Positions 39,161 to 55,260 of a stretch of DNA of 64,000 bases are shown here, one piece after another. The notes below the pieces were generated by a model. It did no database searches and was not told the DNA's origin. It saw nothing but the letters and a program-made list of their open reading frames with translations. This stretch comes from Polyangia bacterium. Lineage in GTDB: Bacteria > Myxococcota_A > Polyangia > Fen-1088. The stretch's first letter is position 1; each line of letters opens with the position of its first letter. The stretch lies in contig DASZRT010000151.1 of assembly GCA_035549075.1 (NCBI GenBank), positions 26,693 to 90,692 of the forward strand. The letters run 5' to 3'. The translations under genes and the position numbers were made by a program.

Positions 39161-39243
39161 GCGCGAAGCCTATCTCAGAAGGGCCGTGCGTCGAATCACG
39201 TGAACGAAGAAGACCTTGTCACCGGCAGAGCGCGCAGGAATAG

Positions 39244-40380
39244 TTGCAAGTCGCGGTGTTCAAGGCCTCTCGCATCGCTCTGATCGCGCTGATCTCGCTC
39301 GCGTGCTCGGGTGCCGGCAACCCCGGCACGGGAACCGGCGGCACCGGCGGCGTCGCCGACACCGGTGGAAGCGCCGACACGGGCGGTGCGCCCGCGACCG
39401 GCGGCAGCGGCGGCGCGCCCGCGATCGGCGGCACCGGCGGCGCTCGCGACCCCCTCGACACGGCGCCGTGGCGGCCGCTCTCGATCACGGCGACGAAGGG
39501 CCTGCACCAACACATGGTGTTCGGCGAGACCTACGTCGGCGTCGACACGCGAGCCGCGAAGATGGCCGGCAAGCTGGTCGTCGATCTCGGCGTCGACCAA
39601 GGCACGTACCTGCCGTGGCTCGGCAAGCGCGGCTTCCACGTGTTCGGCGTGAAGTTCTATCACTGCCAGCACATCGACAATTGGAGCGCGCCCTACGGCC
39701 GCGATTACCCGACGAACTGCCGTTTGCAGACGTTCGACGGCATGGCGCGCGGCGGGGCCGAAAACGACGCCAACGGCAACGTCACCGCCACCAACAACAT
39801 CGCGTACAAGATCAAGACCGGCCTCGCGATGCTGCACGCGTCGTACCCGCAGGAGGATTGGGGGTACTTTCTCAACCAAGACGGCTCGGTCCGTTGGTCC
39901 GACGTCGCGATGACGGGTTACTCGCACGGCGCGCAGACGGCGGCGATGCTCGCGCACTACGTACGCCTCTACCGCGTCGTCTCGCGCTCGGGCCCGCGCG
40001 AGAACAACTGTGGCAACGGCGCGCTCGTGGGCGCCTACGATCCGAACAACCCACCGTTCAAAGCCAACTGCGACATGAGCCAGTGGGGCTCGTGGGAAGA
40101 CGTTCCGTTCGTCACGCCCGTCGAGCGCGTGTTCTCGTTCGCCGGCACGATGGACACGCAGTTCGGCGACGACATGTGGAGCTGCGATCACATGAAGTAC
40201 GTCGGGCTGCCCTTCGACGTCTCGAACACGGCGCCGCCGTACGACGGCCTGACCTACGACGGCTCGCACCGCTTCATCAGCAGCGAGGGCCACACCGCCT
40301 TCGACTCGAAGCCGAGCGAGCTCCAAGCCGAGAACGCCGCCTTCGGCGTCCTGCCCGAGAACCTGAACCCCAATTTCTAG
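39244..40380 (+). CDS. Secreted lipoprotein with a Gly-rich linker and a putative alpha/beta-hydrolase (GYSHG) domain
   Basis: Lipobox ISLACSG. GxSxG nucleophile-elbow-like MTGYSHGAQTAAML. Cys-rich. Confidence 0.7.
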   Translation: MQVAVFKASRIALIALISLACSGAGNPGTGTGGTGGVADTGGSADTGGAPATGGSGGAPAIGGTGGARDPLDTAPWRPLSITATKGLHQHMVFGETYVGVDTRAAKMAGKLVVDLGVDQGTYLPWLGKRGFHVFGVKFYHCQHIDNWSAPYGRDYPTNCRLQTFDGMARGGAENDANGNVTATNNIAYKIKTGLAMLHASYPQEDWGYFLNQDGSVRWSDVAMTGYSHGAQTAAMLAHYVRLYRVVSRSGPRENNCGNGALVGAYDPNNPPFKANCDMSQWGSWEDVPFVTPVERVFSFAGTMDTQFGDDMWSCDHMKYVGLPFDVSNTAPPYDGLTYDGSHRFISSEGHTAFDSKPSELQAENAAFGVLPENLNPNF

Positions 40381-41870
40381 TGCGGCAGGCGCAGCGCGAG
40401 CATGGCGTCGATCGTCGATTGAGGGACTTGCGACGGCAGGCCCGGCAACAGCGTCGCGATGGAGGCCGGCACGGCGTCCGGGTGAACGAGCGCGAGCTGC
40501 ACGGTGCGCGAGGCGACGTCGTACAGCGCGATGAAGTAGCGGTACCCCGTCGCGGGGCGGCGGAACGCCGCGCCCACGCTCGTCTTGTTGACGACGGCGC
40601 CGGCGGCGGCTTCGGTGTTGCCCGTCTTCTTGTTGACGAGGTCGACGGACGCCGGCAGCGCCGAGACGTCGCACTTCGTGCCGCACGGGCCCTCGCCCAC
40701 GTAGCCACCGTAGCCGAAGAAGTTGGTGCTGATGATGTCGAGGTTCTTCGAGGTGTTCTTGTCGTTGACGACCTCGAAGGCGTTCAGCTGGCCGCAGCCG
40801 TCCCCCGAGTAGTTGGCGGTCGCCGGAGGCACCGGCGGGTACGAGTAACACTGGCACGAGTTGTAGAGGCCTTGGCGCACGAGCTCACCGTGGCTGATGC
40901 CGATCCAAGGCGCGTCGTACCAGCCGTCGGTCGCGTCGTTCTTGCAGTTCTGCGCGTTCGTGATCGCGCCCGATCCGTAGTGCGGCATGGTCGCGAGGAT
41001 GATGAACATCTTCGAGCCCGACCAGCCGTAGTCCTTGCTCTTGCCGGCGCCCGGCGCGGGGCAATACGGATCGCTGCCCGGGCCACAGGGGAACGCCATC
41101 CCCGACGAGACGTCGACGAAGCAGTCGTTGCCGACGACGCCCGTGAGACCGGTCGTGCCAGGCGTCATCGGCCCGCCCGAGAACGTCATGTTCGTCGCGG
41201 CCGTCGGGCTGCGCGCGTCCCACGACGACGCCAGCTTCCATGTGCCCGTGAGGCCCGAGACCGGCTGGTAGACGGCGAACTGCTTGACCAGCATCGGGCC
41301 GCGCAACGACACGGCGAGCTCTTCGTCCCAGGGCGTGAGCTGCGTACCGGTGATGACCTTGTTCGTGAGGCAGCACGTGACGTTGCCCTTGGAGTCGGTG
41401 GTCTTCTGCACGTCGCACGGGCCGACGGCGGGATCGCGTCGCGTCGGGTACATACCGGCGGCGCCGATCATGGGGAAGGTGATCGTAGCGCCGTCGGAGA
41501 CGGGCCCCGCGGCGAGGCCGGGATACGGACCGAGGCCGCCGCCCGCGCCAGGCGCGCCGCCGCTCCCCGTCGCGCCGCCCGAAGCCGTCGTGCCGCCGCT
41601 GCCCGGCGTGCCTCCGCTGCCGGTTGTACCGCCCGGCGCCGTCGTGCCGCCGCCGCCGGTCATGCCCCCGCCGCTCGACGTCGTGCCGCCGCGGCCCGGC
41701 GAGCCGCCGGTGCCACCGCTCGCGTGGCCGCCCGCGCCGCCCGTCGTTCCGCCGCCGCCGGACGATCCGCTGGTGCCGCCGCTGGCGCCCGTCGTGCCGC
41801 CACCGCCGCCGCACGCCGCGAGGCTCAACACGGCTCCCAAGACCATCGCGAGCGTCGTTTGACTTTTCAT
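40377..41870 (-). CDS. Secreted Cys/Gly/Tyr-rich lipoprotein, hypothetical (497 aa)
   Basis: An internal ATG gives MKSQTTLAMVLGAVLSLAAC. About 110 aa of GG(T/S) linker, then a Cys-rich globular domain. Convergent with the previous gene; their stops share CTAG. Confidence 0.7.
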   Translation of the reverse strand: MKSQTTLAMVLGAVLSLAACGGGGGTTGASGGTSGSSGGGGTTGGAGGHASGGTGGSPGRGGTTSSGGGMTGGGGTTAPGGTTGSGGTPGSGGTTASGGATGSGGAPGAGGGLGPYPGLAAGPVSDGATITFPMIGAAGMYPTRRDPAVGPCDVQKTTDSKGNVTCCLTNKVITGTQLTPWDEELAVSLRGPMLVKQFAVYQPVSGLTGTWKLASSWDARSPTAATNMTFSGGPMTPGTTGLTGVVGNDCFVDVSSGMAFPCGPGSDPYCPAPGAGKSKDYGWSGSKMFIILATMPHYGSGAITNAQNCKNDATDGWYDAPWIGISHGELVRQGLYNSCQCYSYPPVPPATANYSGDGCGQLNAFEVVNDKNTSKNLDIISTNFFGYGGYVGEGPCGTKCDVSALPASVDLVNKKTGNTEAAAGAVVNKTSVGAAFRRPATGYRYFIALYDVASRTVQLALVHPDAVPASIATLLPGLPSQVPQSTIDAMLALRLPH

Positions 41871-41891
41871 CGCGACACGAGAGTTTATCGC

Positions 41892-43876
41892 ATGGCCTCG
41901 ATCGCCGACACGAAGCGCGCGCTGGACGCGCGTCACGCGAGCCTCGTCATTATTTCTTCGCTCGCCGTTTCATGCGCGCCCGGGCGCGCCGTCGTCGGCC
42001 TCGAGCGCGGCAACGACGAAGGCGCGGGCGGCAGCGGCGGCGCGACCTTCGATTTGTCGCCGATGCTCGCCGATTGGCCGCGCCTCGCCATCGGCACCGA
42101 GAGCCGCTCGATCTCCAGCTTCGATCGCGCCGGCGGCAACGACGACGGCTTCTCGGGTCGTTACTCCGAGCTCTACACCGACGAGAAAGGCGAGCACGTC
42201 ATCGTCGACGTCGGCGGCCCAGGACGCCTCAACACGCTCTGGTTCACGAGCGCCGTGAGCGGCACGGCGCCGCTCGGCCTCGGCCGCCTGCGGTTCTACG
42301 TCGACGGCGCGACGACGCCCACCTTCGAAGCGGACGCCGATCGCCTGTTCGCGGGCCAGGTCGCCGGCTTCCCGCGCGCGCTCGTGTTCGACAACCGCCG
42401 CAGCACGGGCGGTTTCGTCTCATACGTGCCCGTCACGTTCCGCTTCGGCCTGCGCGTCACGACCGAGAACAAGCCGGCTTTCTACAACGCGCAGATCGAC
42501 TCGTTGCCGGCCGACGCCGTCGTCGAGAGCTGGTCACCCGACGCGGATCTCACGAACGCCCTCGCGTCCTTCGGCGCCGGCTCGACGACGAGCGGAGACG
42601 AACCGAGCGACGACGAGGTCACGCTCGACAACGAGCGCGACGGCCCCGGCCTCGTGACGCGTCTGACGTTCTTCCCTTCCGGTTCACCCTCGGCGGCCGA
42701 GCTGCGCGCCGCGCGCGTGCGCATCTTCTGGGAAAACGAAGCGCACCCCAGCGTCGATGGCCCCGTCGACGCGTTCTTCGGCAGCGGCCTCGGCGTCGCG
42801 CCCGTCGCCTCGGCGGCGTTCGAGATGTCGCCCGCCCGTTTCGTGAACCGCGTGCCCATGCCGTTCTGGCGCCACGCGCGCGTTCAACTCACGGGCGTCG
42901 CGGGACGCCTCTTCTTGCACGTCGTCGAAAATCCCTACGACGAGTCTCACACCGCGCATTTGCACGTCACGTGGCACGAAGAGCGGCCCACGACGTCGCC
43001 CGACGACTTCGAGTACGTGACCTTCACGGGCGCCGGCAAGCTCGTCGCCACCGTGCTCACCGTCGAGCCGCCCGATGCCGCGCGCGACAAGCAATGGTGG
43101 GAAGGCGACCTGCGCTCATCGGCCGACGGCCGTCGCACCCCCGGCATTCAAGGCACGGGTTACGAGGACGACCACTTCGGCGGCTGGAGCAACGAGTTCT
43201 TCTCGACACCGTTCTCGCTGCCGCTGTCGGGCGAGCCCGCGGCGCACATCCTCGATCGCAACGGCCAGTACAACGGCGACGTCACCATGTACCGCGTGTG
43301 GCCGGGCATCCCGTTCCTCGGCGAGCTTCGCCACAGCGTCGAGCACGGCGACCAGAACGGCCGCGCCGTGAACGAATCGGCCGCGACGTTCTTTTACGGC
43401 GAGCCGCGATCGTGGCTCGTCACGTCCGACACGCTGGACCTGTGCGACGCCGACGCGCGGACGGCGCATGGCTTCATGCCCTTCGGACAGACGCGGCTCG
43501 ACACGCTCACGAGCCGCTTCGAGGGCCGCGACCCGACGCCCATCACGCACTGCCACCTCGCGCAGTCGAACACAGTGACCTTCAAGCTCGCCGTGCCGGC
43601 CACCAACGAAGGTGTCTACCTGCGCCGCTGGTTCGATCAGGCGACGGGCCCGCAGGCCGCGGTCGTCTCGGTCGACGGCGAATTCGTCGAGGTGTGGTCG
43701 ATCGCCGAGACGAACGCCTCGGCCAATTGGGCCGAGCGCGATTTTTCCTGCCGAAAAGCTTCACGGCGGGCAAAACGACGATCGAAGTGAGCCTCTCGAC
43801 CGAAACCGACATGGGCCTCGTCGCCTGGGACGCCGCTCGCTACCAAGCCGTCGCCGTCGTGCCGCCCGCGCCGTAA
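41892..43876 (+). CDS. DUF2961 (GH172-like) family protein with an apparent frameshift in a T5 run near the 3' end (frame 0 up to ~43745, frame 2 thereafter); possible pseudogene or sequencing error
   Basis: Frame 0 (track ORF ending 43790) gives a coherent protein up to ...ASANWAERDF, then junk (SCRKASRRAKRRSK). Frame 2 continues with protein-like FLPKSFTAGKTTIEVSLSTETDMGLVAWDAARYQ to the stop at 43876. Adding one T to ttttt (43742-43746) would join the two frames. Confidence 0.7.
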
Positions 43877-43933
43877 ACGACGAAGCCACGACGTCGCACC
43901 ACGCGCTCGGTGAACCGTAGTACAACACGCGGC

Positions 43934-45235
43934 ATGTCGGCCACCGATGGAATGGCGAGCAGCGCGCTCGATCGCGCCCGAAGCAAAGCCTTTTGGCACC
44001 TGCTGCCGCTTTGCTTCTTTTGCTACGTCCTCAGTTACGTCGATCGAACCAACATCTCGATCGCCAAGTTGACCATGAAGGGCGACCTTCCCTGGTTCAC
44101 CGACAAGGTGTTCGGCGACGGCTCCGGTTTGTTTTTTCCCGGCTACGTCGTGCTCGCGATCCCGGGCGCGCTCATCGTCGAGCGGTGGGGCGCGCGCAAG
44201 CTCATCACGGGCTCGATGGTCTGCTGGGGCATCGTGGCCGGCGCGATGGCGTTCATCAGCTCGCCGCTTCAGTTCTACGTGTTTCGTTTCTTGCTGGGCG
44301 TCGCCGAGGCCGGCTTCTTCCCGGGGATGATCGTGTTCCTCACGCACTGGTTCCCCACTCGCGATCGCGCGCGCGCGACGGCGACGCTCATCATCGCCAC
44401 CCCGTTCTCGCAGATCGTGAGCCCCAAGCTCTCGGGCGCCATGTTGCACATGGACATGCTCGGCCTCAAAGGCTGGCAGTGGATGTTCATCAACTGGGCC
44501 GTGCCCGCCGTGGTCCTCGGCGCGCTCATCCTGTTGCTGCTTCCCGACCGCCCCAGCGAGGCCCGCTGGCTGACGGCGGAGGAGCGCGACGCGCTCGAGC
44601 AAGAGCTGGCTCGCGAACGTCTCGCGCGCGCGGGAAAACAAAAGATGAAGGTGCTCGAGGCGCTCACACACCCCAAGGTGCTGTTGCTCGCGCTCGCCTA
44701 CTTCCTGGCCGTTTCGGCCAATTACGGCCTCGAGTTCTTCCTGCCGACGATGTTGAAGGACTGGTACAAGCTGCCGCTCGACACCATCACGTGGCTGCTC
44801 ATGCTGCCGCCGGCCGCGGCCTTGACGGGACAGCTCTTCGCGGGCTGGCACTCGGACCTGCGCAAGGAGCGGCGGTTGCACACCGTGGTTCCTCTGCTGA
44901 TCGGCGCGGTGACGCTCGTGCTCGTGAGCCGCACGCAAGGAGCCCTCGCGCTCACGATGGCGTGCTTCGTGTTGGCAGCGGCTGGCATCAAGTCGTACCA
45001 ACCGTCGTTCTGGGCGCTCCCGCCCCTTCTGTTGTCCGAGGCGGCGGCGGCCGGAAGCATCGGCTTCATCAACGCGATCGGAAATCTGGGCGGTGCTTTT
45101 GGTTCGTCCATGATGGGACGAGTCCGAACCGCAACGGGGTCATACGGTGGAGGATTGACTGTCCTCTCCGTGGCCATGTTGGCGTCGGCCGCGATCATCT
45201 TTTTCATCGGCCTCGGAAAGCGGACCGAGTCGTAG
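43934..45235 (+). CDS. MFS transporter, anion:cation symporter family (hexuronate/aldonate/sugar-acid type)
   Basis: 12 TMS. Motifs LSYVDRTNISIA and GAMAFISSPLQFYVFRFLLGVAEAGFFPG. ATG 43934; an alternative in-frame GTG start lies at 43910. Confidence 0.85.
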   Translation: MSATDGMASSALDRARSKAFWHLLPLCFFCYVLSYVDRTNISIAKLTMKGDLPWFTDKVFGDGSGLFFPGYVVLAIPGALIVERWGARKLITGSMVCWGIVAGAMAFISSPLQFYVFRFLLGVAEAGFFPGMIVFLTHWFPTRDRARATATLIIATPFSQIVSPKLSGAMLHMDMLGLKGWQWMFINWAVPAVVLGALILLLLPDRPSEARWLTAEERDALEQELARERLARAGKQKMKVLEALTHPKVLLLALAYFLAVSANYGLEFFLPTMLKDWYKLPLDTITWLLMLPPAAALTGQLFAGWHSDLRKERRLHTVVPLLIGAVTLVLVSRTQGALALTMACFVLAAAGIKSYQPSFWALPPLLLSEAAAAGSIGFINAIGNLGGAFGSSMMGRVRTATGSYGGGLTVLSVAMLASAAIIFFIGLGKRTES

Positions 45236-45263
45236 GCCGCGGCGGATCGCCGCGTCTCGCAGA

Positions 45264-45316
45264 AAGAACGTTCCGGAAATCGTTCTTCTGCGTTTGATTG
45301 GCCCGCTCGTGTATAA
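45264..45316 (+). promoter_or_regulatory. Candidate promoter/operator: inverted repeat AGAACG-TTCCGGAA-atCGTTCT followed by a TATAAA box ~33 nt before the start codon
   Basis: TATAAA is an AT island in 70%-GC DNA. A GGAGGA RBS lies 8 nt before ATG 45350. Confidence 0.35.
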
Positions 45317-45349
45317 AGAAGCGGCCACAACGGAGGACACCGCCTTTCC

Positions 45350-45739
45350 ATGTCGAACATTCAGTCAATCGTTGAAGATTTCGCCAATGAGCTGAGCGCG
45401 CTCATCGAAGAGCAGGTGCTCACGCGCGCGCGCGCCGCCGTCTCAGCCGCGCTCGGCGGCGCCGCCCCCAAGCGGGGCCCGGGCCGTCCCCCGAAGGCCG
45501 CCAAGCTGCTGTCCGCCGTGGGCGTCGCGCCCGGCCGCAAGAAGCCGCGCAAGAAGGCGCCGCCGCAGCTCTGCCCCGTCCCCGGTTGCAAGAACAAGGC
45601 GGCCCCGATCTTCGGCATGGTGTGCTCCGCGCACAAGGACGTGCCCAAGGCGAAGATCAGGGAGTACCGCGAGGCACGCCGCGCCAAGAAGGAAGGCAAG
45701 AAGCCGAAGGGCCGCAAGGCCGCGGCCGCCAAGGCATAA
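45350..45739 (+). CDS. Small basic AT-hook (HMGA-like) DNA-binding protein with a C2CH zinc-knuckle-like motif (129 aa)
   Basis: KRGPGRPPKAAK and PGRKKPRKKAPP AT-hook-like motifs. CPVPGCKNKAAPIFGMVCSAH. Lys/Arg-rich C-terminus. Confidence 0.75.
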   Translation: MSNIQSIVEDFANELSALIEEQVLTRARAAVSAALGGAAPKRGPGRPPKAAKLLSAVGVAPGRKKPRKKAPPQLCPVPGCKNKAAPIFGMVCSAHKDVPKAKIREYREARRAKKEGKKPKGRKAAAAKA

Positions 45740-45821
45740 AGGGCGCGGCGACGGCTCGCGGGCCGCGCCGAGCCCGTCGGGCGCTTGCACGGGAGCCGAA
45801 TTCCCTTTAACAATAAGGGCC

Positions 45822-46583
45822 TTGGCTCAGTCTCACAAAAGCTACAACTACTCGAGGAGCCATCGTCTCCTCGAGATTGTCGGCATCGCGGGCCTGTTCA
45901 TCCTGCTCGCCTACGTCGCCGTCCGCCTCGTCATGGGCGTGTCGACGATGTCACAAGGGCTCGCCGTCCTCGGGACCATCACGGTCGGGTATTTCCTGAC
46001 CGACTTCATCTCGGGCTTCGTGCACTGGGCGGGCGACACGCTCGGCAGCGAGACGATGCCGATCATCGGCGCGACGTTCGTCAAACCCTTCCGCTTCCAC
46101 CACGTGGACCAGAAGGACATCACGCGCCACGACTTCATCGAGACGAACGGCAACAACTGCATCCTGTCGTTGCTGCTCATGCTCCACGTCGCGATCCTCA
46201 TGCCGCGCTCGCCGGGCTTCTTCTTCTATTACGGCGCGCTCATGTTCTCGATCGCGCTGTTCACGCTGGGCACGAACCAGTTCCACAAGTGGGCGCACGC
46301 CGAGCCCGAGACGTTGAGCCCCGTCGTGCGCGGTCTTCAGCGCGCGGGCCTCATCCTCTCTCCCGAGCACCACACGACGCACCACACGGCGCCGTACGAG
46401 ACTTACTACTGCATCACGCACGGCATGCTGAACCCGCTGCTGGCGCGCATCCGCTTCTTCCGCCACGCCGAGCGCTTCTTCCAGACGGTGTGGCCGTCGC
46501 TGCTGTACCTCGACGAGCGCGTGAAGTTCGAGGCCGCCAAGCGCGCCGCCGAGGCGCCGGCGCCGACGGCGCAAGCCGGCTGA
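45822..46583 (+). CDS. carF: CarF/TMEM189 (Kua-domain) family membrane lipid desaturase homolog (plasmanylethanolamine desaturase-like)
   Basis: Four TM helices and clustered His boxes (FVHWAGD, FRFHHVD..RHD, HKWAH, HHTTHH, ITHG) as in the Kua/TMEM189 family. Confidence 0.55.
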   Translation: MAQSHKSYNYSRSHRLLEIVGIAGLFILLAYVAVRLVMGVSTMSQGLAVLGTITVGYFLTDFISGFVHWAGDTLGSETMPIIGATFVKPFRFHHVDQKDITRHDFIETNGNNCILSLLLMLHVAILMPRSPGFFFYYGALMFSIALFTLGTNQFHKWAHAEPETLSPVVRGLQRAGLILSPEHHTTHHTAPYETYYCITHGMLNPLLARIRFFRHAERFFQTVWPSLLYLDERVKFEAAKRAAEAPAPTAQAG

Positions 46584-46666
46584 CGACCTGACGCTCGTGT
46601 GACGCTCCTCCGGGCGCCATGTGCGCCTTCAGGCGACCACGGCCTCCTGCCGATGCTCCGCCTTCG

Positions 46667-47203
46667 ATGAGGCGCTTCGCCACGCCCCGAAGGCTCGCGG
46701 CCCTCGCCGCGGCGATCGCCGTCTCGGGCCTCGTCGGGTGCGCGACGGCGCCGCCGCCCGCGCCGCCGTCGTCGCCGAGCGCGCTGCTGGGCGCGCCGCT
46801 GCCGGCGTTTCGAAGGTCGACGCTCGGTGGGGCGACGTCGTTCGACACGACGACCGTCGGGCCGCGCCTGCTCGTCGTCGACTTCTTCGCCTCTTATTGT
46901 GGGCCCTGCCAGCGCGCGTTGCCCGCGCTCGAATCGCTGCACGCGTCGCGGCCCGACGTCGCCATCGTCGGCGTCTCGCTCGACGACGACGAGCCGCACG
47001 CCGCGCGCGTCGTCGCGCGCCACCACCTCACCTTCCCCGTCGTCCTCGACGGCGGCCACACGCTCGCGGGCAAGTTCCGCGTGACCGAGCTGCCCGCGGC
47101 CTTCGTCGCCGATCGCGGCGGCCGCGTCGTCTGGTCGGCGGGCCCCGGCGCCGCCGAGAACGCGCTGCCGACCGCCGTCGCGGCTCTCGAGAGCGCGCCG
47201 TGA
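46667..47203 (+). CDS. TlpA/ResA-like thiol-disulfide oxidoreductase lipoprotein (thioredoxin fold, CGPC)
   Basis: An internal ATG gives MRRFATPRRLAALAAAIAVSGLVGC. CxxC motif in FFASYCGPCQRALP. Confidence 0.8.
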   Translation: MRRFATPRRLAALAAAIAVSGLVGCATAPPPAPPSSPSALLGAPLPAFRRSTLGGATSFDTTTVGPRLLVVDFFASYCGPCQRALPALESLHASRPDVAIVGVSLDDDEPHAARVVARHHLTFPVVLDGGHTLAGKFRVTELPAAFVADRGGRVVWSAGPGAAENALPTAVAALESAP

Positions 47204-48474
47204 GCGCACGCGGACTTCTCGCCACGACGCTCGCGCTCGCCTCATGCGCATGGTCGAGCGGGCCGCGGGGCGCGCGCGCGATCCTACCGACGGCGCCAGC
47301 CGAGCTCGGCAAGTGCCGCGTCGCCGCGAGCCAATCGAGCCCGCTCGTCACCGAGTGGCCCGCGTCGGAGAAGGCGAACCTCGAGGTGCTCTCGCGCAGC
47401 GGCGCCGTCGCCGTCGCGTACTCGGGCTGCAGCCTGCGCGTGCTGCCCGAGTGCCGCGTGCGCGGCGGCTACCGCTGGCAGCGCTCGACGCCCGCGACCG
47501 ACTCGCTGCAGATCAACGACAGCGACGATCTCTACGCGAAGCTGCCGCTCGGCGCGGCGTCGCTCGAGGGCGAGCTCAAGCGGGCCGGCCAGCTGGGCGT
47601 CAAGACGGTCGTCTCGGGCCAGCTGCGCCTCGTCGACGCGAGCCTGAGCGACGTGCCCGCCGACGGCGCGTGCGCGCAGGCGACGCACCTCGTGACGGCG
47701 ATGTCCGTCGGCGCGTTCGAGCTCACGGCGGGCGGCTCGCGCGAGGGCAGCGCGAACGCGAGCGTCACGACGTTCGGCGAGGCGAAGCTCGACAGCCAGC
47801 GCGCCGTCGAGCAGCTGCGCTCGGCCGGCGACTTCGCGGCGTGCGCCGCCGCCACCGACGAGAGCCCCAACGCCAACTGCGCGTCGCCCGTGCAGGTGTT
47901 CCTCACGCCGCTGCCCGGCCGCGCCGCCGAAGAAGGTCCGCCCGGCACGGTGAAGGTCGACTTCCTCTCGGCGAACCCGTCGAGCCGCTGGGACGTGTAC
48001 GCCGACGACCAAGTCATCTGCACGACGCCGTGCGCGCGCTTCGTGCACCCCGCGCACCCCGTGATGCTGCGGACGCGCGACGACGGCTTCTTCTGGTCGC
48101 ACCCCGACAAGGTCGAGGTCGCGAGCTTCCTCGCGTACCCCGACGCTCACTTGCAGCTGCAAGCACACCCCACGTCGCGCGGCGAGCTCTCGACGGGCAT
48201 CATCTTCACGACCTTCTCGGGCGCCGCCATCATGTCGGGCGCCGCGCTCATGGGCGTCGGCTGCAGCAGCTCCGATCACCGCGCGATGTGCACGGCCGGC
48301 ATCATCTCCGGCGGCGTCGGCGCCGTCGGCCTCGCGGGAAGCCTGTGGCTGTTGTTCGACGCCATGCCGAAGGCGGAGATCGCGCCGTACACGGAGGGTG
48401 GATCGTTGATGGCGCGGCGGGGATCCGACTTTCGTTGGCACCTCTCGCCCGGCGGGGCATGGGGCACGTTCTAG
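47200..48474 (+). CDS. Lipoprotein, hypothetical (424 aa), translationally coupled to the TlpA-like gene
   Basis: GTGA overlap with the upstream stop. LALASCAW lipobox. C-terminal predicted TM/amphipathic segment (GIIFTTFSGAAIMSGAALMGVG...GLAGSLWLLF). Confidence 0.65.
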   Translation: MSARGLLATTLALASCAWSSGPRGARAILPTAPAELGKCRVAASQSSPLVTEWPASEKANLEVLSRSGAVAVAYSGCSLRVLPECRVRGGYRWQRSTPATDSLQINDSDDLYAKLPLGAASLEGELKRAGQLGVKTVVSGQLRLVDASLSDVPADGACAQATHLVTAMSVGAFELTAGGSREGSANASVTTFGEAKLDSQRAVEQLRSAGDFAACAAATDESPNANCASPVQVFLTPLPGRAAEEGPPGTVKVDFLSANPSSRWDVYADDQVICTTPCARFVHPAHPVMLRTRDDGFFWSHPDKVEVASFLAYPDAHLQLQAHPTSRGELSTGIIFTTFSGAAIMSGAALMGVGCSSSDHRAMCTAGIISGGVGAVGLAGSLWLLFDAMPKAEIAPYTEGGSLMARRGSDFRWHLSPGGAWGTF

Positions 48475-48484
48475 AAAGAACGAC

Positions 48485-49069
48485 CTAGACCATCGTCACG
48501 TCCGTCAGCGCGCCGTCCGCGAACACCGCGCGGAACACCGCGGTGTTCGCCAGCGGCGGCGGCATCGCTCCCGTCGCGCGCGCGACGAGCGCGCGGATCG
48601 AGCCGCCGTGGCTCACGACGAGCACGGCGCCGTCACCCTCGCCGTCACGCGTCTCCCCGGCGCGGGCGACGGCGGCCTCCATGCGGCGCCCCAGCGCGTC
48701 GTGCGCCTCGGCGCCGGGCGGCACGCGGCTCACGTCGGCGCGGTAGGCGGCCCAGTGCTCCGGATGTCGCGCCTGACACTCGTCGCGCGTCAGGCCTTCG
48801 AACAAGCCGAACGAGCGCTCGCGCAGATCGCGATCGACGACGAGCGGGCCCGCGCCGAGGATCGCGCGCACGATCTCCGCCGTCTCTCGCGCGCGCAGCA
48901 AGTCGCTCGTGTGGACGCGCGCGAAGACGGCACCGCGTAGCTTCTCGGCGAGCGCGCGCGCCTGCGCCCGGCCCGCGTCGTTGAGCGCGACGTCGGTGTG
49001 GCCTTGCCACCGCCCGTCGCGGTTCCAGTCGGTCTCGCCGTGTCGCGCGAGGTAAAGGACGCGTCCCAC
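48485..49069 (-). CDS. Histidine phosphatase family protein (phosphoglycerate-mutase-like)
   Basis: A GTG start 3 nt after the marR stop gives MGRVLYLARHGETDWN (RHG catalytic motif); the second His lies in VVSHGGSIRAL. Confidence 0.8.
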   Translation of the reverse strand: MGRVLYLARHGETDWNRDGRWQGHTDVALNDAGRAQARALAEKLRGAVFARVHTSDLLRARETAEIVRAILGAGPLVVDRDLRERSFGLFEGLTRDECQARHPEHWAAYRADVSRVPPGAEAHDALGRRMEAAVARAGETRDGEGDGAVLVVSHGGSIRALVARATGAMPPPLANTAVFRAVFADGALTDVTMV

Positions 49070-49074
49070 GCGCG

Positions 49075-49554
49075 TCAGCGTTTCGCTGCTTCTTCGGCGA
49101 GGCGCTCCTCGAGCACGGCCGAGAGCGCTTCGGCGAGCCGGCGCCGCGTCTCCTCGGGCAGCGCCGTCACGGCGCGCGGCGTCTCCATCGTCCGCGCCCA
49201 CAGCTTCTCTCGCAGGTGACGGCCCTTGTCCGTCAGCACGAGCACCTTGATGCGCCGATCGGTCTCGTCGGCGCGCCGCGCGGCGAGGCCGCGCGCCTCG
49301 AGCTTGTCGACGATCCCCGTGATGTTCGAGGCGTCGCAGGCGAGCTCTTCGGCGAGCGCGCTCATGGGCACCGGCTTCTCGGGATCGATCGAGCGGACGG
49401 CGTGGCCCTGCATGGGGGTCAGGTCGAACTCCGCGCACATCGCGACCCACCAGGACTTCTGACTGAGCAGAAACTCGATCATCACCGGCCAACAGTCGTC
49501 GGCCGACAGCTTCTTCACCCGATTTCGCCGGGGATTTTTGAGCTTGTCATCCAT
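49075..49554 (-). CDS. MarR-family transcriptional regulator
   Basis: Winged-helix core LAEELACDASNITGIVDKLEARGLAARRADETDRRIKVLVLTDKG; 159 aa. Divergent from the RND operon. Confidence 0.9.
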   Translation of the reverse strand: MDDKLKNPRRNRVKKLSADDCWPVMIEFLLSQKSWWVAMCAEFDLTPMQGHAVRSIDPEKPVPMSALAEELACDASNITGIVDKLEARGLAARRADETDRRIKVLVLTDKGRHLREKLWARTMETPRAVTALPEETRRRLAEALSAVLEERLAEEAAKR

Positions 49555-49579
49555 CCGCAGCTAATACTTTCACACAACT

Positions 49580-49625
49580 TAATAATTGACAACTTCAATC
49601 TTTATCGAATACGAATACCATCGCT
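49580..49625. promoter_or_regulatory. AT-rich divergent promoter/operator region between marR and the RND operon (TTGACA -35-like hexamer; ATTGA-N5-TCAAT partial palindrome; tandem CGAATA repeats)
   Basis: About 35% GC in a 70%-GC genome. TTGACA at ~49586-49591. GAGG RBS before ATG 49654. Confidence 0.4.
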
Positions 49626-49653
49626 TCACACCCACTGACCAATGAGGTCCGTC

Positions 49654-50760
49654 ATGAGAGTCCGTCCGTCGAGCTTCCTCGCGCACCCGCTTCCGCTCTT
49701 GCTCGCGCTCCCGCTGGTCATCTTCGAGGCGGGCTGCCACAAGTCGTCGGCCGAGGCGGCGCCGACCGAGGCCAAGCCGGAGGCCTCGGCGCCGGTCGCC
49801 GTCAAGGCGTTCGAGGTCCGCGAGCTCAAGGTGCCGCGCACGCTCACGCTCTCGGGCTCGCTCATCGGCTCGGAGGAGGCCAAGGTCGCCGCGGGCGCCG
49901 CGGGCAAGGTGCTCGCGACGTACGTCGAGCGCGGCGCGGTCGTCCACAAGGGCGCTTTGCTCGTGAAGCTCGACGCGCGCACGCTGGGCGCGCAGGCCGA
50001 GGAGGCGTCGGCGCAGGTCGAGTCGCTCAAGGCGCAAGCGGCGCAGGCGCAGCTCGACTGCGCGCGCACGCAGCAGATGTTCGACAAGGGCGCGATCTCG
50101 AAGGCCGAGTACGATCGTCAGCACACGGCCTGCACGACCTCGAAGTGGTCGGTGTCGGCGGCCGAGGCGCGCAAGACGCTCACGGCCGAGGCGCTGCGCG
50201 ACACCGAGATCCGCGCGCCCTTCTCGGGGATGATCGTCGAGCGCTTCGTGAGCGCCGGTGAGTACGTGCAGCCGGCGACGCCCGTCGTCGAGCTCGTCGA
50301 CGTCGACGCCCTCCGCGTCGAGCTCACGGTGCCCGAAGCCGACGTCGCGCAGGTGCGTCAGGGCATGCCCATAGACTTCCACACGGCCGCCAACGACGAC
50401 GGCCCCGCCTACCACGGCAAGATCCGCTACGTCGGCCCGTCGGTGCGCGAGAAGACGCGCGACGCCGTCGTCGAGGCCGCCGTCGAGAACCAGGGCCACG
50501 ATCTGCGCCCCGGCATGTTCGTGCAGGCGCACCTCGCGCTCGGCGTGCAGTCGCTGCCGGCCGTGCCCGCGGCCGCCGTGCGCACCGAAGGCTCGCTCAA
50601 GCACGTGTTCGTCGTGCAGGACGGCCGGCTCGAGGATCGCCTCGTCCAGGTCGCCGACGTCGTCGACGGGCACGTGCCCGTCTTGAGCGGCCTCAAGGCC
50701 GGCGAGAAGATCGCCGCCGAGGCCACCCCCGAGCTGCGCGACGGCGCGAAGGTGCAGTGA
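49654..50760 (+). CDS. RND efflux periplasmic adaptor (membrane fusion protein, AcrA/HlyD family) lipoprotein
   Basis: Lipobox FEAGC, biotinyl-lipoyl hairpin, beta-barrel and MP domains; 368 aa. Confidence 0.9.
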   Translation: MRVRPSSFLAHPLPLLLALPLVIFEAGCHKSSAEAAPTEAKPEASAPVAVKAFEVRELKVPRTLTLSGSLIGSEEAKVAAGAAGKVLATYVERGAVVHKGALLVKLDARTLGAQAEEASAQVESLKAQAAQAQLDCARTQQMFDKGAISKAEYDRQHTACTTSKWSVSAAEARKTLTAEALRDTEIRAPFSGMIVERFVSAGEYVQPATPVVELVDVDALRVELTVPEADVAQVRQGMPIDFHTAANDDGPAYHGKIRYVGPSVREKTRDAVVEAAVENQGHDLRPGMFVQAHLALGVQSLPAVPAAAVRTEGSLKHVFVVQDGRLEDRLVQVADVVDGHVPVLSGLKAGEKIAAEATPELRDGAKVQ

Positions 50761-50767
50761 GGCCGCC

Positions 50768-53700
50768 ATGCAGTGGCTCGCATCGATCTCCGTTCGCCGC
50801 CCCGTCTTCGCGACGGTGATGATCCTGACGATCCTCGTCGTCGGCATCGTCGGCTACAAGCAGCTCAACGTCGACCGCTTCCCCAACGTCGACTTCCCCA
50901 TCATCTCGATCATCACGACGCTCCCCGGCGCCGCGCCCGAGGAGGTCGAGACCGAGCTCACCGACAAGATCGAGGAGGCCGTCAACACGCTGGGCGGCAT
51001 CGAGGAGCTCCGCTCGACCTCGACGGAGGGCGTCTCGCAGGTCTTCGTGACGTTCACGCTCGACAAGAACGTCGACACGGCCGCGCAGGACGTGCGTGAC
51101 CACGTGAGCCTCGTGCTGCCCGACCTGCCCGAGGGCACGAAGCCGCCCGTCATCAGCAAGCTCGACCCCGACGCCGCGCCCGTGCTCTTCATCGCCATGG
51201 AGTCGAAGATGGCGAACCGCGAGCTCACCGAGCTCGCCGATCACGAGGTGCGCCAAGCGCTCGAGAGCATCGAGGGCGTCGGTCAGGTCACGATCGTCGG
51301 CGGCCGCAAGCGGCAGGTCCAGGTGTTCGTCGACCCCGTGAAGATGCGCGCCGCGGGCATCTCGGCGACCGAGGTCCAGCGCGCCATCGTCTCGCAGAAC
51401 GTCACGATCCCGGGCGGCGCGATCGAGACCGGCCCGCAGCGCCTCACGTTCCGCGTGCGCGGCCGCATCCAGAACGTCGCGGGCGTCGGCGACGTCATCA
51501 TCCGCAACGTCGACAACCACCCGATCCTCGTGCGCGACGTCGCGACCGTCGTCGACGGCGAGGAGGAGGCCGAGACCGCGGCGAGGGTCAACGGCGTGCA
51601 GTCCGTCGTCCTGTCGATCCGCAAGCAGTCGGGCGAGAACAGCGTCGCCGTCGTCGACGCGCTCCGCGAGCGCATGAAGGAGCTCGAGAAGACGCTGCCC
51701 AACGACACCCACCTGCGCGTCATCCGTGACAACACCGAATCGACGCGCACGTCGGTCGACGCCGTGCGCGAGCACCTCATCTTAGGCGCGATCTTCGCGT
51801 CGCTCGTCGTCCTCGTGTTCCTCGGCCACTTCCGCAGCACGATCATCGCGGCGCTCGCGATCCCGACGTCGATCATCGGCACGTTCATGGCGATGTGGCT
51901 CATGGGCTTCACGCTCAACGTCATCACGCTGCTCGCGCTCGCGCTCGCCGTCGGCATCGTCATCGACGACGCCATCGTCGTGCTCGAGAACATCTTCCGT
52001 TTCATCGAAGAGAAGCGCATCCGCCCCATGCCGGCCGCGATCTACGCGACCAAGGAGATCGGCCTCGCCGTCCTCGCGACGACGCTGTCGCTGCTGGCCG
52101 TCTTCCTGCCCGTCGCGTTCATGAACAGCATCCCGGGCCGCTTCCTGCGCAGCTTCGGCCTCACGATGGGCGCCGCCATCGCGATCTCGCTGTTCGTGAG
52201 CTTCACGCTCACGCCCATGCTCGCGTCGCGCTGGCTGCGCGTGAAGACGGGCGCCGACGGCCACCACGACAAGGGCCCATTCGAACGGCTCGTCGACGTG
52301 TTCTACCGGCCCATCGAGCGCCTCTACATGAAGGTGCTCGGCTACGTCATCGACCGCCGCTGGATCGTCGTCGTCGCGTCGATCGCGACGCTGGGATCCT
52401 GCTTCCCGCTCGTCCAGAAGGTGCCGAAGGGCTTCATCCCCAAGAACGACGAGGCGCAGTTCGAGATCACGATCCGCACGCCCGAGGGCACGAGCCTCGC
52501 GTCGACCGAGCTCACCGCCGAGCGCGTCGCGCGCGAGGTGCGCGAATGGCCCGAGGTCACGGCCACGAACGTCACGATCGGCGACAACGCCACGAAGACG
52601 CCCAACCTCGCGTCGGTCTTCGTGCGCCTCGTGCCGCCCGACCAGCGCAAGCTCACGCAGGATCAGCTGCAGGACAAGGCGCGCAAGGAGATCGTCACCA
52701 AGCTCCCGAAGGACTGGCGCGTCTCGGTGCTCGCCGTCGCGGCCTTCGGCGGCGGCGCGTTCAGCACGGCGACGGTCCAGTACGTCTTGACGGGCCCGTC
52801 GCTCGAGAAGCTCGGCGAGTACGCCGACGCGATCTCGAAGAAGCTCAAAGCGGTGCCGGGCGCCGTCGACGTCGACACGTCGATGATCACGGGCAACCCC
52901 GAGGTCGTCGCCGTCGTGAACCGGCGCAAGGCCGCCGACCTCGGCGTCAACGTCCTCGACGTGTCGGCCGCGGGGCAGATCCTCGTCGGCGGCCTCAAGG
53001 TCTCGCGCTACGAGGAGAAGGGCCGCGAGTACGACATCCTCGTGCGTGCCGAGGACAAGTTCCGCTCGAGCCCCGAGGCGCTGTCGCTGCTCACCGTGCC
53101 CTCGTCGAAGCTCGGCACCGTGCCGCTGCTCGACGTCGTCGACCTCAAGCGCGACGAGAGCCCGTCGAAGATCGACCGCATCGCGCGCCAGCGCCAGGTG
53201 ACCTTCCTCGCCAACACGACGCCCGGCGTCGGCGCCGGCGAGGTCGGCTCGGCGCTCGAGAAGATCGTCGCCGACATGCACCTGCCGGCCGAATACCGCT
53301 TCGCGCCGTTCGGTCAGTCGAAGGAGCTCAAGCGCACGGGCGGCGCCTTCATCCTGGCCTTCGGCATGGCCTTCATCTTCATGTACCTCATCCTCGCGGC
53401 GCAGTTCGAGTCGTGGCTCCACCCCATCACGATCCTGCTGGCGCTGCCGCTCACGGTGCCGTTCGCGCTCTTGTCGCTGCTGATCTTCGGGCAGGCGCTC
53501 GACATCTTCACGATGCTGGGCATTCTGGTGCTCTTTGGGGTTGTCAAAAAGAACTCCATCCTTCAGATCGACCACATCAATCATTTGAGAAAAGAGGGCA
53601 TGAGCCGCCGCGACGCGATCCTCCACGGCAACCGAGACCGTCTCCGTCCGATCTTGATGACCACGCTGGCGTTCGTCGCCGGCATGGCGCCGCTCGTGAC

Positions 53701-53965
53701 GTCGAAGGGCATCGGCGCCGAGTTCAACCGCGCGACGGCCGGTCCCGTCGTCGGTGGGCAGATCCTGTCGTTGCTGCTGACGTTGCTCGCGACGCCGATC
53801 GCTTATTCGTTGTTTGATGACCTGTCGGGCTTCGTGCGGCGCAAGCTGGGCCTCAAGGACCGTCCCGACTCCGAGACGGGCGCGAGCGAAATCATGCCGC
53901 CGCCCGATGTGATCCCCAATGTCCATGACGGCCACGCCGTCCGCACTGCCGAGGTGACTTCGTGA
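50768..53965 (+). CDS. RND multidrug efflux pump, HAE1/AcrB family (1065 aa)
   Basis: N-terminal MQWLASISVRRPVFATVMILTILVVG. 12 TMS with two large periplasmic loops; conserved TM4/TM10 regions. Confidence 0.95.
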   Translation: MQWLASISVRRPVFATVMILTILVVGIVGYKQLNVDRFPNVDFPIISIITTLPGAAPEEVETELTDKIEEAVNTLGGIEELRSTSTEGVSQVFVTFTLDKNVDTAAQDVRDHVSLVLPDLPEGTKPPVISKLDPDAAPVLFIAMESKMANRELTELADHEVRQALESIEGVGQVTIVGGRKRQVQVFVDPVKMRAAGISATEVQRAIVSQNVTIPGGAIETGPQRLTFRVRGRIQNVAGVGDVIIRNVDNHPILVRDVATVVDGEEEAETAARVNGVQSVVLSIRKQSGENSVAVVDALRERMKELEKTLPNDTHLRVIRDNTESTRTSVDAVREHLILGAIFASLVVLVFLGHFRSTIIAALAIPTSIIGTFMAMWLMGFTLNVITLLALALAVGIVIDDAIVVLENIFRFIEEKRIRPMPAAIYATKEIGLAVLATTLSLLAVFLPVAFMNSIPGRFLRSFGLTMGAAIAISLFVSFTLTPMLASRWLRVKTGADGHHDKGPFERLVDVFYRPIERLYMKVLGYVIDRRWIVVVASIATLGSCFPLVQKVPKGFIPKNDEAQFEITIRTPEGTSLASTELTAERVAREVREWPEVTATNVTIGDNATKTPNLASVFVRLVPPDQRKLTQDQLQDKARKEIVTKLPKDWRVSVLAVAAFGGGAFSTATVQYVLTGPSLEKLGEYADAISKKLKAVPGAVDVDTSMITGNPEVVAVVNRRKAADLGVNVLDVSAAGQILVGGLKVSRYEEKGREYDILVRAEDKFRSSPEALSLLTVPSSKLGTVPLLDVVDLKRDESPSKIDRIARQRQVTFLANTTPGVGAGEVGSALEKIVADMHLPAEYRFAPFGQSKELKRTGGAFILAFGMAFIFMYLILAAQFESWLHPITILLALPLTVPFALLSLLIFGQALDIFTMLGILVLFGVVKKNSILQIDHINHLRKEGMSRRDAILHGNRDRLRPILMTTLAFVAGMAPLVTSKGIGAEFNRATAGPVVGGQILSLLLTLLATPIAYSLFDDLSGFVRRKLGLKDRPDSETGASEIMPPPDVIPNVHDGHAVRTAEVTS

Positions 53966-55260
53966 AGACCCTTCTCAAGACGACCGCTCTGGGTGTTTTT
54001 CTGGTGACCGCGCCGGCGTTGGCTCAGACCGCGCCGAGCGACGGATCTGAGCTCTCGTTCGATCAAGCCCTGGCGCTCGCGCGCAAGAACAACCGCGCCG
54101 TCAAGGTCGATCGCGCGCAGCTCACCGCGGCGCAGACGGCGACAGAGACGGCATGGTCGTCGCTGCTGCCGACGATCGCGGCGCAGGGAAAGTACACGCG
54201 CAACTACAAGCAGGTGGAGTTCCCGGCGGGCACGTTCGGGCCGAAGGGGCTGCTCCTCCAGCCGACCAACCAGTTGGACGGAACGATCAGCGCGACGCTG
54301 CCGTTGATCGCGCCCGCGGCCTGGGCCGCGCTCAAGTCGGTGCAGGCCAACGTCGACTCGGCCGAGGCGAACTTCGCGGCGCAAGAGGCCGATCTGCTCG
54401 TCCAGGTGGCGCAGACGTACCTCGCCGCCGCGGGTACCGACGAGCTCGTCACGGCGCGCCAGTCGAGCCTGAGCGTCGCGCGCGCGACGCTCAAGGACGC
54501 GGAGGTGCGGCTGGCCGCGGGCTCGGTCACGAAGGTCGACGTCGACCGCGCCGAGGTCGCCGTCGTCCGCGCCGAGCAGGCGGAGCGCGAGGCGCTCACC
54601 GCGCGCGAGCGAACCTACCGCGGGCTCGGGACGCTCCTCCAGTCCAACGTCCAGAAGGTCAGCACGACTTTCCCGACGGCGCCCGCGCCGGACGCCAACG
54701 ACGTCCAGACCGCGCTGCACCTCCGCCCCGAGTTCCGCGCGCTCGAGATGACGGCGCGCTCGGCCGATCAGGAAGCCAATGCGCGCGCTTGGCTCTGGGC
54801 GCCGAGCATCTCGGCCTTCGGCAACGCGCGCAAGTTCAACTACGACAACTTCGCGCTGGATCGCTACTCGTGGGCAGCCGGTGCTCAACTCGACTGGCTG
54901 CTGTTCGACGGCGGCTCGCGCGACGCGGCCCGACACCAGGCCAACGCGCGCGCCGCGGCGGCGCGCGAGCAGGCCTCCCTCTTCGGCGACACCGTGCGCG
55001 ACGATCTCGCCAACACGTCGGCTGACCTGCGCACGAAACGCGAGGCCGTCAACGCCGCGCAGAAGTCGGCGGCGCTGTCGCAAGAGTCGCTCGACCTCAT
55101 TCGCACGCAGTACACGGCGGGCACGGCGACGCAGCTCGACCTGCTGCAGGCGCAGGACGCCCTCGTGAGCGCGAACATCGCGCTCGTCCAGGCGCACTTC
55201 GACGTCGCGGCCGCGGACCTCGCGTTTCGCCACGCCGCGGGCACGTTCCCGCCTAAGTAG
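53962..55260 (+). CDS. Outer-membrane efflux protein (TolC/OprM-like OMF)
   Basis: GTGA overlap with the RND stop. Signal peptide LVTAPALAQ. Duplicated alpha-helical/beta-barrel repeats; 432 aa. Confidence 0.9.
   Translation: MKTLLKTTALGVFLVTAPALAQTAPSDGSELSFDQALALARKNNRAVKVDRAQLTAAQTATETAWSSLLPTIAAQGKYTRNYKQVEFPAGTFGPKGLLLQPTNQLDGTISATLPLIAPAAWAALKSVQANVDSAEANFAAQEADLLVQVAQTYLAAAGTDELVTARQSSLSVARATLKDAEVRLAAGSVTKVDVDRAEVAVVRAEQAEREALTARERTYRGLGTLLQSNVQKVSTTFPTAPAPDANDVQTALHLRPEFRALEMTARSADQEANARAWLWAPSISAFGNARKFNYDNFALDRYSWAAGAQLDWLLFDGGSRDAARHQANARAAAAREQASLFGDTVRDDLANTSADLRTKREAVNAAQKSAALSQESLDLIRTQYTAGTATQLDLLQAQDALVSANIALVQAHFDVAAADLAFRHAAGTFPPK

Follow-up and report, generated by a model that had tools for sequence, protein, structure and literature searches.

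A CarF/PEDS1-type desaturase gene and its small AT-hook-like, zinc-knuckle neighbour in an uncultured Polyangia bacterium

Introduction

Where a gene for a small basic protein with DNA-binding-like motifs lies immediately upstream of a gene for a CarF-like membrane desaturase, do the two form a functional unit, or do they simply share a piece of chromosome? We address this question for a 64,000-nt stretch of contig DASZRT010000151.1 from an uncultured Polyangia bacterium (the window hereafter; all positions are counted from its first letter). In Myxococcus xanthus, CarF-made plasmalogens mediate singlet-oxygen signalling (PMC9131029) and CarD uses AT-hooks (PMC2919716), and a first-pass annotation of the window had proposed a photo-oxidative stress module made up of the small protein, the desaturase and a thioredoxin-like lipoprotein encoded downstream. 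Our analysis leans, if modestly, towards a different arrangement, namely two separately transcribed neighbours (a PEDS1-type CarF and one paralogue of a nucleoid-associated or architectural protein family), with an inverted repeat upstream of the pair that would terminate the preceding major facilitator superfamily (MFS) gene, and a TlpA-like gene that would be an unrelated insert. The two genes in question are as follows.

45350–45739, plus strand: gene for a small basic protein of 129 amino acids (aa), supported by homologues, an alignment and an AlphaFold2 model
45822–46583, plus strand: carF, gene for a CarF/PEDS1-type membrane desaturase of 253 aa with a TTG start, supported by Pfam PF10520

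Results

The desaturase

The 253-aa protein matches Pfam PF10520 (Lipid_desat, the Kua/TMEM189/CarF domain) with E=7.5e-52 and 176.3 bits (cut-off 26.4) across profile positions 1–166 of 175. PF10520 is the sole desaturase family matched, on which ground a generic sterol or fatty-acid desaturase was rejected, and the Kua/TMEM189/CarF membership suggested at first pass is borne out by this profile search. A database protein of 100% identity carries the NCBI name “fatty acid desaturase CarF family protein”.

The residues essential in mouse PEDS1 are H96, D100, F118, H121, H122, H131, H187, H191, H215, H218 and H219 (PMC8960569, PMC9131029). Eight of the essential histidines of PEDS1 and CarF are common to plant FAD4, and the ninth (mouse H131, CarF H113) is present in PEDS1 and CarF, not in FAD4 or alphaproteobacterial homologues (PMC9131029, PMC8960569). 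In the window protein the eight shared histidines are H68, H93, H94, H155, H159, H184, H187 and H188, with spacing identical to that of PEDS1; the PEDS1-specific ninth is H103 (in ITRHDFIE), nine residues past the HH pair, the distance found in PEDS1; and the Asp and Phe that are essential are present as D72 (in HWAGD) and F90 (in FRFHH). The resulting pattern, H68-x3-D72, F90-x2-H93-H94, H103, H155-x3-H159 and H184/H187/H188, therefore places all nine histidines, the Asp and the Phe at PEDS1 spacing, and each of these residues is invariant in an alignment of 12 bacterial homologues of 45–100% identity. Hydropathy places four hydrophobic segments in two pairs (Kyte–Doolittle peaks at about 16–34, 45–67, 110–128 and 132–150), in number consistent with the four transmembrane helices of CarF/PEDS1.

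The likeness to M. xanthus CarF and animal PEDS1 (TMEM189) thus extends over the PF10520 domain, the motifs H-x3-D, F-x2-HH, H+9, H-x3-H and HHxxHH, the specific His (H103 here, H131 in mouse, H113 in CarF), the Asp, the Phe and the four hydrophobic segments. Over 216 residues the desaturase is about 41% identical to what we take to be the human PEDS1 sequence. The numbering of that sequence fits D99 and F117 (PMC9131029). A PDB sequence search with CarF returned no solved relative. Plant FAD4 and the alphaproteobacterial PF10520 desaturases have the same Pfam domain and the eight conserved histidines but lack the ninth (usually Arg in plants), and FAD4-type proteins did not complement M. xanthus delta-carF (PMC9131029; PMC8960569); because H103 is present, we class the window desaturase as PEDS1-type and reject a FAD4-type assignment.

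By these sequence features the 253-aa protein is a genuine member of the CarF/PEDS1-type family, a predicted di-iron membrane desaturase, and the residue conservation points to the conversion of plasmanyl (alkyl ether) phosphatidylethanolamine to the vinyl-ether plasmalogen as its most likely activity. The assignment itself is already known, because the identical protein carries the NCBI name given above by automatic annotation and a preprint has surveyed PEDS1 in Myxococcota across GTDB (bioRxiv 10.1101/2025.10.10.681575). In reviews, myxobacterial CarF is for the most part confined to Cystobacterineae (PMC9131029); the window adds, from a Polyangia lineage, a PEDS1-type enzyme that has every catalytic residue.

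The small protein

The 129-aa open reading frame (ORF) is a real, conserved gene, as had been proposed: its GC content at third codon positions (GC3) is 0.90, in a window of about 70% GC where the coding ORFs around the pair have a GC3 of 0.88–0.94, and the protein has 966 detectable homologues, forming 429 clusters at 50% identity. With this GC3 and about 1000 homologues, a shadow ORF was rejected. The product is strongly basic (isoelectric point 10.7; 30 K+R against 9 D+E). All family members seen are annotated as “hypothetical protein” and come from metagenomes or from Polyangia/Myxococcota metagenome-assembled genomes (MAGs); a third search for homologues, started from a divergent relative with two modules and combined with cluster look-ups, yielded no named or cultured member. 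Searches of the small protein against Pfam, NCBIfam and PHROGs gave nothing over threshold, and a PDB sequence search with the family profile gave chance matches only (E>1).

An alignment of 31 relatives, 59–82% identical, informs on the architecture. The N-terminus forms an amphipathic helix with conserved I4, V8, D10, F11, A12, L15, I19 and Q22. It is followed by a single AT-hook, K41-R-G-P-G-R-P-P-K49 (KRGPGRPPK, with the GRP core at G45-R46-P47), in which R42, G45, R46, P47 and K49 are invariant. Two AT-hook-like GRP cores had been described at first pass; this one stands, whereas the second, GRKKPRKK, is a conserved basic patch that leads into the zinc knuckle and contains no GRP. The CxxxxC...CxxH motif noticed at the same time is confirmed as C75-x4-C80-x11-C92-x2-H95, the putative zinc ligands, invariant across the relatives and embedded in a larger invariant block (R67-K69-P71-Q73-C75-P-x-P-G-C80-x-N...A-P-x-F-G-M-V-C92-x-x-H95-K) that continues into a basic helix. 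The C-terminus is a Lys-rich tail. The AlphaFold2 model (mean pLDDT 72) predicts a helix at 4–34, a disordered hook and linker, the knuckle at 73–99 and the basic helix at 100–116.

No profile or fold match relates the knuckle to any named zinc-finger family. It shares the ligand spacing C-x4-C-x11-C-x2-(C/H) with A20-type fingers, from which it differs in having His rather than Cys as the last ligand (Foldseek E=6 over 27 columns), and it shares the opening CPxPGC with zf-C2HC (MYT1-type) fingers, which it matches over 9 residues only, with no more than 13.8 bits (cut-off 32.3); the small protein is a member of neither family. M. xanthus CarD likewise has a GRP core in a basic context and binds DNA by AT-hooks, but it combines four RGRP hooks with an acidic stretch and, at its N-terminus, a CarD_CdnL_TRCF domain that interacts with RNA polymerase (PMC2919716). 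The small protein has a different architecture, as the first-pass annotation had noted, and is without those parts: no Pfam or NCBIfam match to CarD_CdnL_TRCF was found, its N-terminus is a single long helix, its one hook is PGRP, and its zinc knuckle is missing from CarD. HMGA has three hooks and CarD four, against the single hook of the small protein. In Anaeromyxobacter CarD, an H1-like tail stands in place of the hooks, much like the tails of some relatives of the small protein.

These tails belong to distant relatives (P0252, P0263, P0272, P0280, P0291, P0292 and P0339), which carry two tandem CPVPGC...FGMVC..H modules, so that the knuckle is duplicated intact, together with long Lys/Ala/Pro-rich, histone-H1-like extensions of the KAPAKK type; the tail of one relative matches HC2, a family resembling histone H1, below threshold. 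The small-protein family is multi-copy, the best 80 GTDB loci being spread over about 43 MAGs, of which SMAG_U10178 has five copies, and its paralogues have AT-rich -10 boxes upstream, some of them near enough to the ATG for a leaderless mRNA.

Several further observations concern the family. Some distant members have GRPK right before the knuckle and no separate AT-hook. Two paralogues lie beside mobile-element genes (L082, protein P0103, with HTH_17 and a PDDEXK nuclease; L090, protein P0118, with an rve integrase and HTH_17), a setting that recalls the H-NS- and Lsr2-like genes carried on mobile elements. One group of paralogues (L006, L007, L009–L013, L015, L024 and L025) shares the upstream arrangement CTTGTTTGC, about 17 nt, TATTAT, CCGCGCCG and ATG, located about 60 nt upstream of the ATG, in which CTTGTTTGC...TATTAT is predicted to be a strong sigma-70-like promoter whose position would make the transcript leaderless; a second group has TAGTCT and a short leader with AGGGGGA. 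A family member also occurs in a MAG labelled Gemmatimonadales (L022, JBBRGF010000339.1), which is probably due to misbinning and not a sign that the family reaches further taxonomically, because the contig is short (2.9 kb) and the distribution is otherwise exclusively Polyangia/Myxococcota.

Gene order around the pair

The two genes are flanked by the following genes.

43910–45235, plus strand: MFS transporter gene (PF07690 MFS_1, E=1.1e-46), given as context and no part of the proposed module
46667–47203, plus strand (ORF opens at 46619): gene for a TlpA/ResA-like thioredoxin-fold lipoprotein (Redoxin, AhpC-TSA, Thioredoxin_8), a variable insert
47200–48474, plus strand: gene for a 424-aa lipoprotein (LASC lipobox) with no Pfam or NCBIfam family and no family-based function; its start overlaps the stop of the TlpA-like gene (GTGA)
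48485–49069, minus strand: His_Phos_1 phosphatase gene, a conserved member of the collinear block
49075–49554, minus strand: MarR regulator gene, a conserved member of the collinear block

The small gene lies 82 nt upstream of the desaturase gene, as first described, and the pair is syntenic in close relatives: it is unbroken in 12/12 loci, and its two genes are on the same strand, 47–87 nt apart, with identities among orthologues of about 72–85% for the small protein and 75–84% for CarF. Beyond this one orthologous group it does not extend. Approached from the small protein, CarF lies within 6 kb in the five closest (70–82% identity) of the best 80 GTDB loci, and gene tables of further relatives hold the pair at 72–85% identity; near the other small-protein family loci CarF was found in 0/78. 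Paralogues at 64–69% identity are already without it, one lying beside GH3, SpoIIE and HupE genes and two beside mobile-element genes. Approached from CarF, a metagenome scan with eight diverse family queries, counting informative loci, found the small gene in 2/2 loci with a CarF of at least 77% identity; no family member was present near more distant CarF homologues of 43–64% identity (0/61, comprising three homologues at 48–64% and 58 metagenome-scan loci at 43–59%). Clustering of neighbours by stop-to-stop ORFs was swamped by high-GC shadow ORFs and served only to show that the paralogue groups each have a context of their own.

The orthologous loci are collinear well beyond the pair, in the order Pirin ... 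NDH2, Tos1-like, GH172, YaeQ, MFS, small gene, CarF, a variable slot, His_Phos, MarR and RND. The MFS gene is upstream in most of them (53–56% identity) and missing in L003 and L004, where the upstream neighbour is YaeQ. Because this long block has a shared ancestry, the adjacency of the small gene and carF is, on comparative grounds, to be read as inherited gene order in one lineage and not as a conserved functional module.

The thioredoxin-fold lipoprotein proposed at 46667–47203 is real (Redoxin 52 bits, AhpC-TSA 50 bits, Thioredoxin_8 45.9 bits; CGPC motif, LVGC lipobox), and it scores under the cut-offs of the NCBIfam TlpA and ResA equivalogs. The redoxin and lipoprotein gene pair is missing from L001–L005, L081, L083 and L088 and present only in L087, the closest relative, where an opposite-strand HbpS-like gene lies between CarF and the redoxin and a 437-aa counterpart of the 424-aa lipoprotein follows. 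By this distribution the TlpA-like gene is a lineage-variable insert and no constant companion of CarF. Gene turnover is concentrated in the slot that separates carF from His_Phos (46584–48484 in the window), which is empty in L003 and holds an HbpS-like gene in L088, HbpS-like and NHL-repeat genes in L081 and L083, HbpS-like, redoxin and 437-aa protein genes in L087, and redoxin and 424-aa lipoprotein genes in the window.

Transcription signals

A strict consensus promoter and terminator scan of 45150–46750 reported 0 sites, and the promoter calls below therefore rest on conservation across loci.

45238–45292, plus strand: two hairpins just 3' of the MFS stop codon (GC stem at 45238–45254; inverted-repeat core at 45265–45286, then GTTTGATT)
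45312–45317, plus strand: TATAAA, a -10-like box of the small gene with no good -35 at standard spacing
45332–45336, plus strand: GGAGG, a Shine–Dalgarno-like element 13 nt before the ATG of the small gene
45742–45769, plus strand: GC-rich hairpin GGCGCGGC-N12-GCCGCGCC right after the small-gene stop codon, a possible terminator without a T-run
45785–45814, plus strand: putative sigma-70-like promoter of carF, TTGCAC (45785–45790), 17 nt and TAACAAT (45808–45814), ending 8 nt before the TTG start

The inverted repeat, AGAACG-TTCCGGAA-AT-CGTTCT, is unique in the window (expected 0.05), which agrees with the first-pass description of it as rare; the sequence given there had dropped two bases. 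It extends to a bulged stem of about 11 bp (CAGAAAGAACG/CGTTCTTCTG, 45260–45290) that lies 25 nt past the MFS stop codon, after the GC hairpin, and the hairpin region has a fold energy of -28.2 kcal/mol (z = -2.7 against shuffles). The repeat is missing in all relatives examined (L001–L005, L087 and L088), including the closest at 85% identity, where just 50 nt separate the MFS stop codon from the small-gene ATG. We regard it as most likely a terminator of the upstream MFS gene, from its position and predicted fold.

The rarity claimed for TATAAA was well founded, in that the box at 45312–45317 is the sole one on either strand of the 64 kb (expected 0.11). The sequence around it, GTGTATAAAG, is identical in L005, L087 and L088, with TATGAT or TATATG at the same position in L001–L004, and ACGGAGG is likewise conserved in L005, L087 and L088; because GTGTATAAAG and GGAGG are conserved in the nearest relatives, we read TATAAA as a -10 box. 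The leader of the window and of L005, L087 and L088 differs from that of L001–L004, which have a conserved leader hairpin, CTCTCCCAATCGAGAGGG, about 20–45 nt upstream of the ATG, with a Shine–Dalgarno-like GAGAGG in its 3' arm; that hairpin may serve translational control. A further element, GGAACGTT, seemed recurrent upstream in L003 and L004 and was dropped as an operator candidate (2 matches in the window against 1.5 expected).

Between the two genes, nine aligned intergenic loci (the window with L001–L003, L005, L081, L083, L087 and L088) share a promoter-like element with the consensus CTTGC(A/G)N, 17–18 nt, TAA(C/G/A)AAT, in which CTTGC and T.C..TA..AA are invariant, including the -35 core and four -10 positions. 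The -10-like box ends 7–9 nt before the TTG or GTG start in 9/9 loci, because of which the carF mRNA would be leaderless or nearly so and would have a non-AUG start, an unusual arrangement. Upstream of this element, L083 has a hairpin followed by TTTTT at the place of the window hairpin. Taken with the hairpin downstream of the small gene, this conserved element makes it probable that carF has its own, near-leaderless transcript.

Interpretation and alternative explanations

The arrangement that we prefer, with the terminator and the insert placed as above, has as its two actors the PEDS1-type CarF and a protein that is most likely a nucleoid-associated or architectural DNA-binding protein, because the hook, the knuckle, the basic charge, the H1-like tails of relatives, the multi-copy distribution and the AT-rich -10 boxes all point in that direction. 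Its conserved amphipathic N-terminal helix would mediate self-association or partner binding, and the single AT-hook would enter the minor groove of AT-rich DNA, which in a genome of 70% GC would be mainly promoters and foreign DNA; the Cys3His knuckle, basic helix and Lys-rich tail would add further DNA contacts. H-NS, Lsr2, MvaT and MucR/Ros are comparable: they too are small and basic, self-associate through a helical region at the N-terminus, bind DNA through the C-terminus and have several paralogues per genome, some on mobile elements. AT-rich minor grooves are read by AT-hook-like RGR/GRP motifs in H-NS and Lsr2 and by a zinc finger in MucR (PMC4466236; PMC7710501). The small protein nonetheless has no sequence or fold match to H-NS, Lsr2, MvaT or MucR/Ros, and the comparison is one of working principle.

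Several observations weigh against this interpretation. The desaturase reaches 229.6 bits against the NCBIfam CarF equivalog (NF045946, PlasmethDesatCarF), under the cut-off of 500 while still clearly homologous; in this, and in coming from an uncultured Polyangia MAG, it differs from M. xanthus CarF. No ether-lipid precursor genes (ElbD or AGPS/FAR/GNPAT) were found in the Pfam scan of about 28.7–62.3 kb (1–28.6 kb was not scanned). On the side of the small protein, DNA binding, zinc binding and oligomerisation are read from sequence and a medium-confidence model; the hook is single and has a PGRP rather than the canonical RGRP core; and neither Pfam AT_hook (PF02178) nor any other Pfam family was matched even at E<=5, for AT_hook a weak negative since that model is very short and the filters strict. 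The pair, moreover, is kept in 12/12 loci though the MFS gene is lost in L003 and L004 and the genes after CarF turn over, and within the carF promoter the AT-rich stretch TTTAACAATAA is a potential binding site for an AT-hook.

The last two points would suit a lineage-specific local regulator, in which the CarF-linked paralogue acts on carF or on its own promoter through the hook, the knuckle and an AT-rich -10. The same strand and short spacing of the two genes, the conserved and unusually AT-rich core of the carF promoter and the similar conservation of the two proteins all agree with such a tie. The constancy of YaeQ, His_Phos, MarR and RND is equal to that of the pair, however, so that collinearity of the block accounts for it; all other paralogues lie in unrelated contexts, CarF homologues outside the orthologous group have no such neighbour, and no common repeat or operator was found upstream of both genes. 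We therefore consider this regulator rather unlikely, while granting it some weight because the pair was never broken.

For the photo-oxidative module, in which the AT-hook protein, CarF and the TlpA-like protein would respond to light or singlet oxygen through the AGAACG...CGTTCT palindrome, there is the M. xanthus precedent of CarF plasmalogens and CarD AT-hooks, the fit of a thiol-disulfide oxidoreductase to an oxidative-stress theme, and the placement of all three genes on one strand. It also survives the refuting conditions named at first pass, since the desaturase matches the Kua/TMEM189 profile and the pair is syntenic in close relatives. Comparison across loci largely refutes it, and we hold it to be very improbable: the palindrome is absent from every relative examined and sits, terminator-like, right after the MFS stop codon; the TlpA-like gene is missing from 9 of the 10 orthologous loci examined, and in L087 an opposite-strand gene intervenes; the predicted promoters are separate; and the pair is confined to one orthologous group. 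In the scanned part of the window (about 28.7–62.3 kb) no carotenoid, ether-lipid, CarR/CarQ or CarH-type genes were found, and the factors of the M. xanthus singlet-oxygen pathway are reported to be mostly limited to Cystobacterineae (PMC9131029). The adjacency of the small gene and carF should accordingly not be propagated as a “photo-oxidative stress module”.

A different doubt concerns the ligand of the small protein, which might be RNA or a partner protein (as for a factor associated with the ribosome or with RNA polymerase), the GRP then being incidental. Cys3His knuckles and Lys/Arg-rich tails are known from RNA-binding proteins too, and the weak A20-type resemblance (E=6) hints at a protein-binding finger; the GRP core and its flanking K/R are, on the other hand, invariant across the subfamily, relatives have histone-H1-like tails, and a multi-copy paralogy that is at times found beside mobile-element genes resembles that of H-NS and Lsr2. 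On this evidence binding to something other than DNA seems improbable.

The reading of two separately transcribed neighbours can be taken one step further, in a proposal that we advance tentatively and that may well not hold: the CPVPGC...FGMVC..H family could be a new class of bacterial chromatin protein in uncultured, high-GC Polyangia, an analogue of H-NS, Lsr2 and MucR. The helix would drive oligomerisation, the hook and knuckle would read AT-rich promoters and foreign DNA, and both the chromosome and mobile elements would carry paralogues. Weaker still is the addition that this lineage uses the CarF-linked paralogue to tune plasmalogen synthesis. What is new here is the small-protein family only, a combination of known DNA-binding parts with an unmodelled domain; it is large, strongly conserved and multi-copy, it is absent from Pfam, NCBIfam and PDB, and none of the sequences seen comes from a cultured organism. 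Were it to organise the nucleoid or silence genes, it would fill a gap in what is known of chromatin proteins in high-GC Myxococcota and would justify a new domain family.

Other features of the window

A 1524-aa ORF at 39216–43790 (plus strand) was rejected as a high-GC artefact by GC3 and Pfam; the genes really present there are a Tos1-like gene (40377–41870, minus strand) and a GH172/DUF2961 gene (42054–43790, plus strand). On the other side of the pair, at 49075–55260, the MarR gene and a complete RND efflux operon (HlyD-type adaptor, AcrB-type pump and OEP outer-membrane factor) are divergently oriented, and the two keep their place in the collinear block as constantly as the small gene and carF do.

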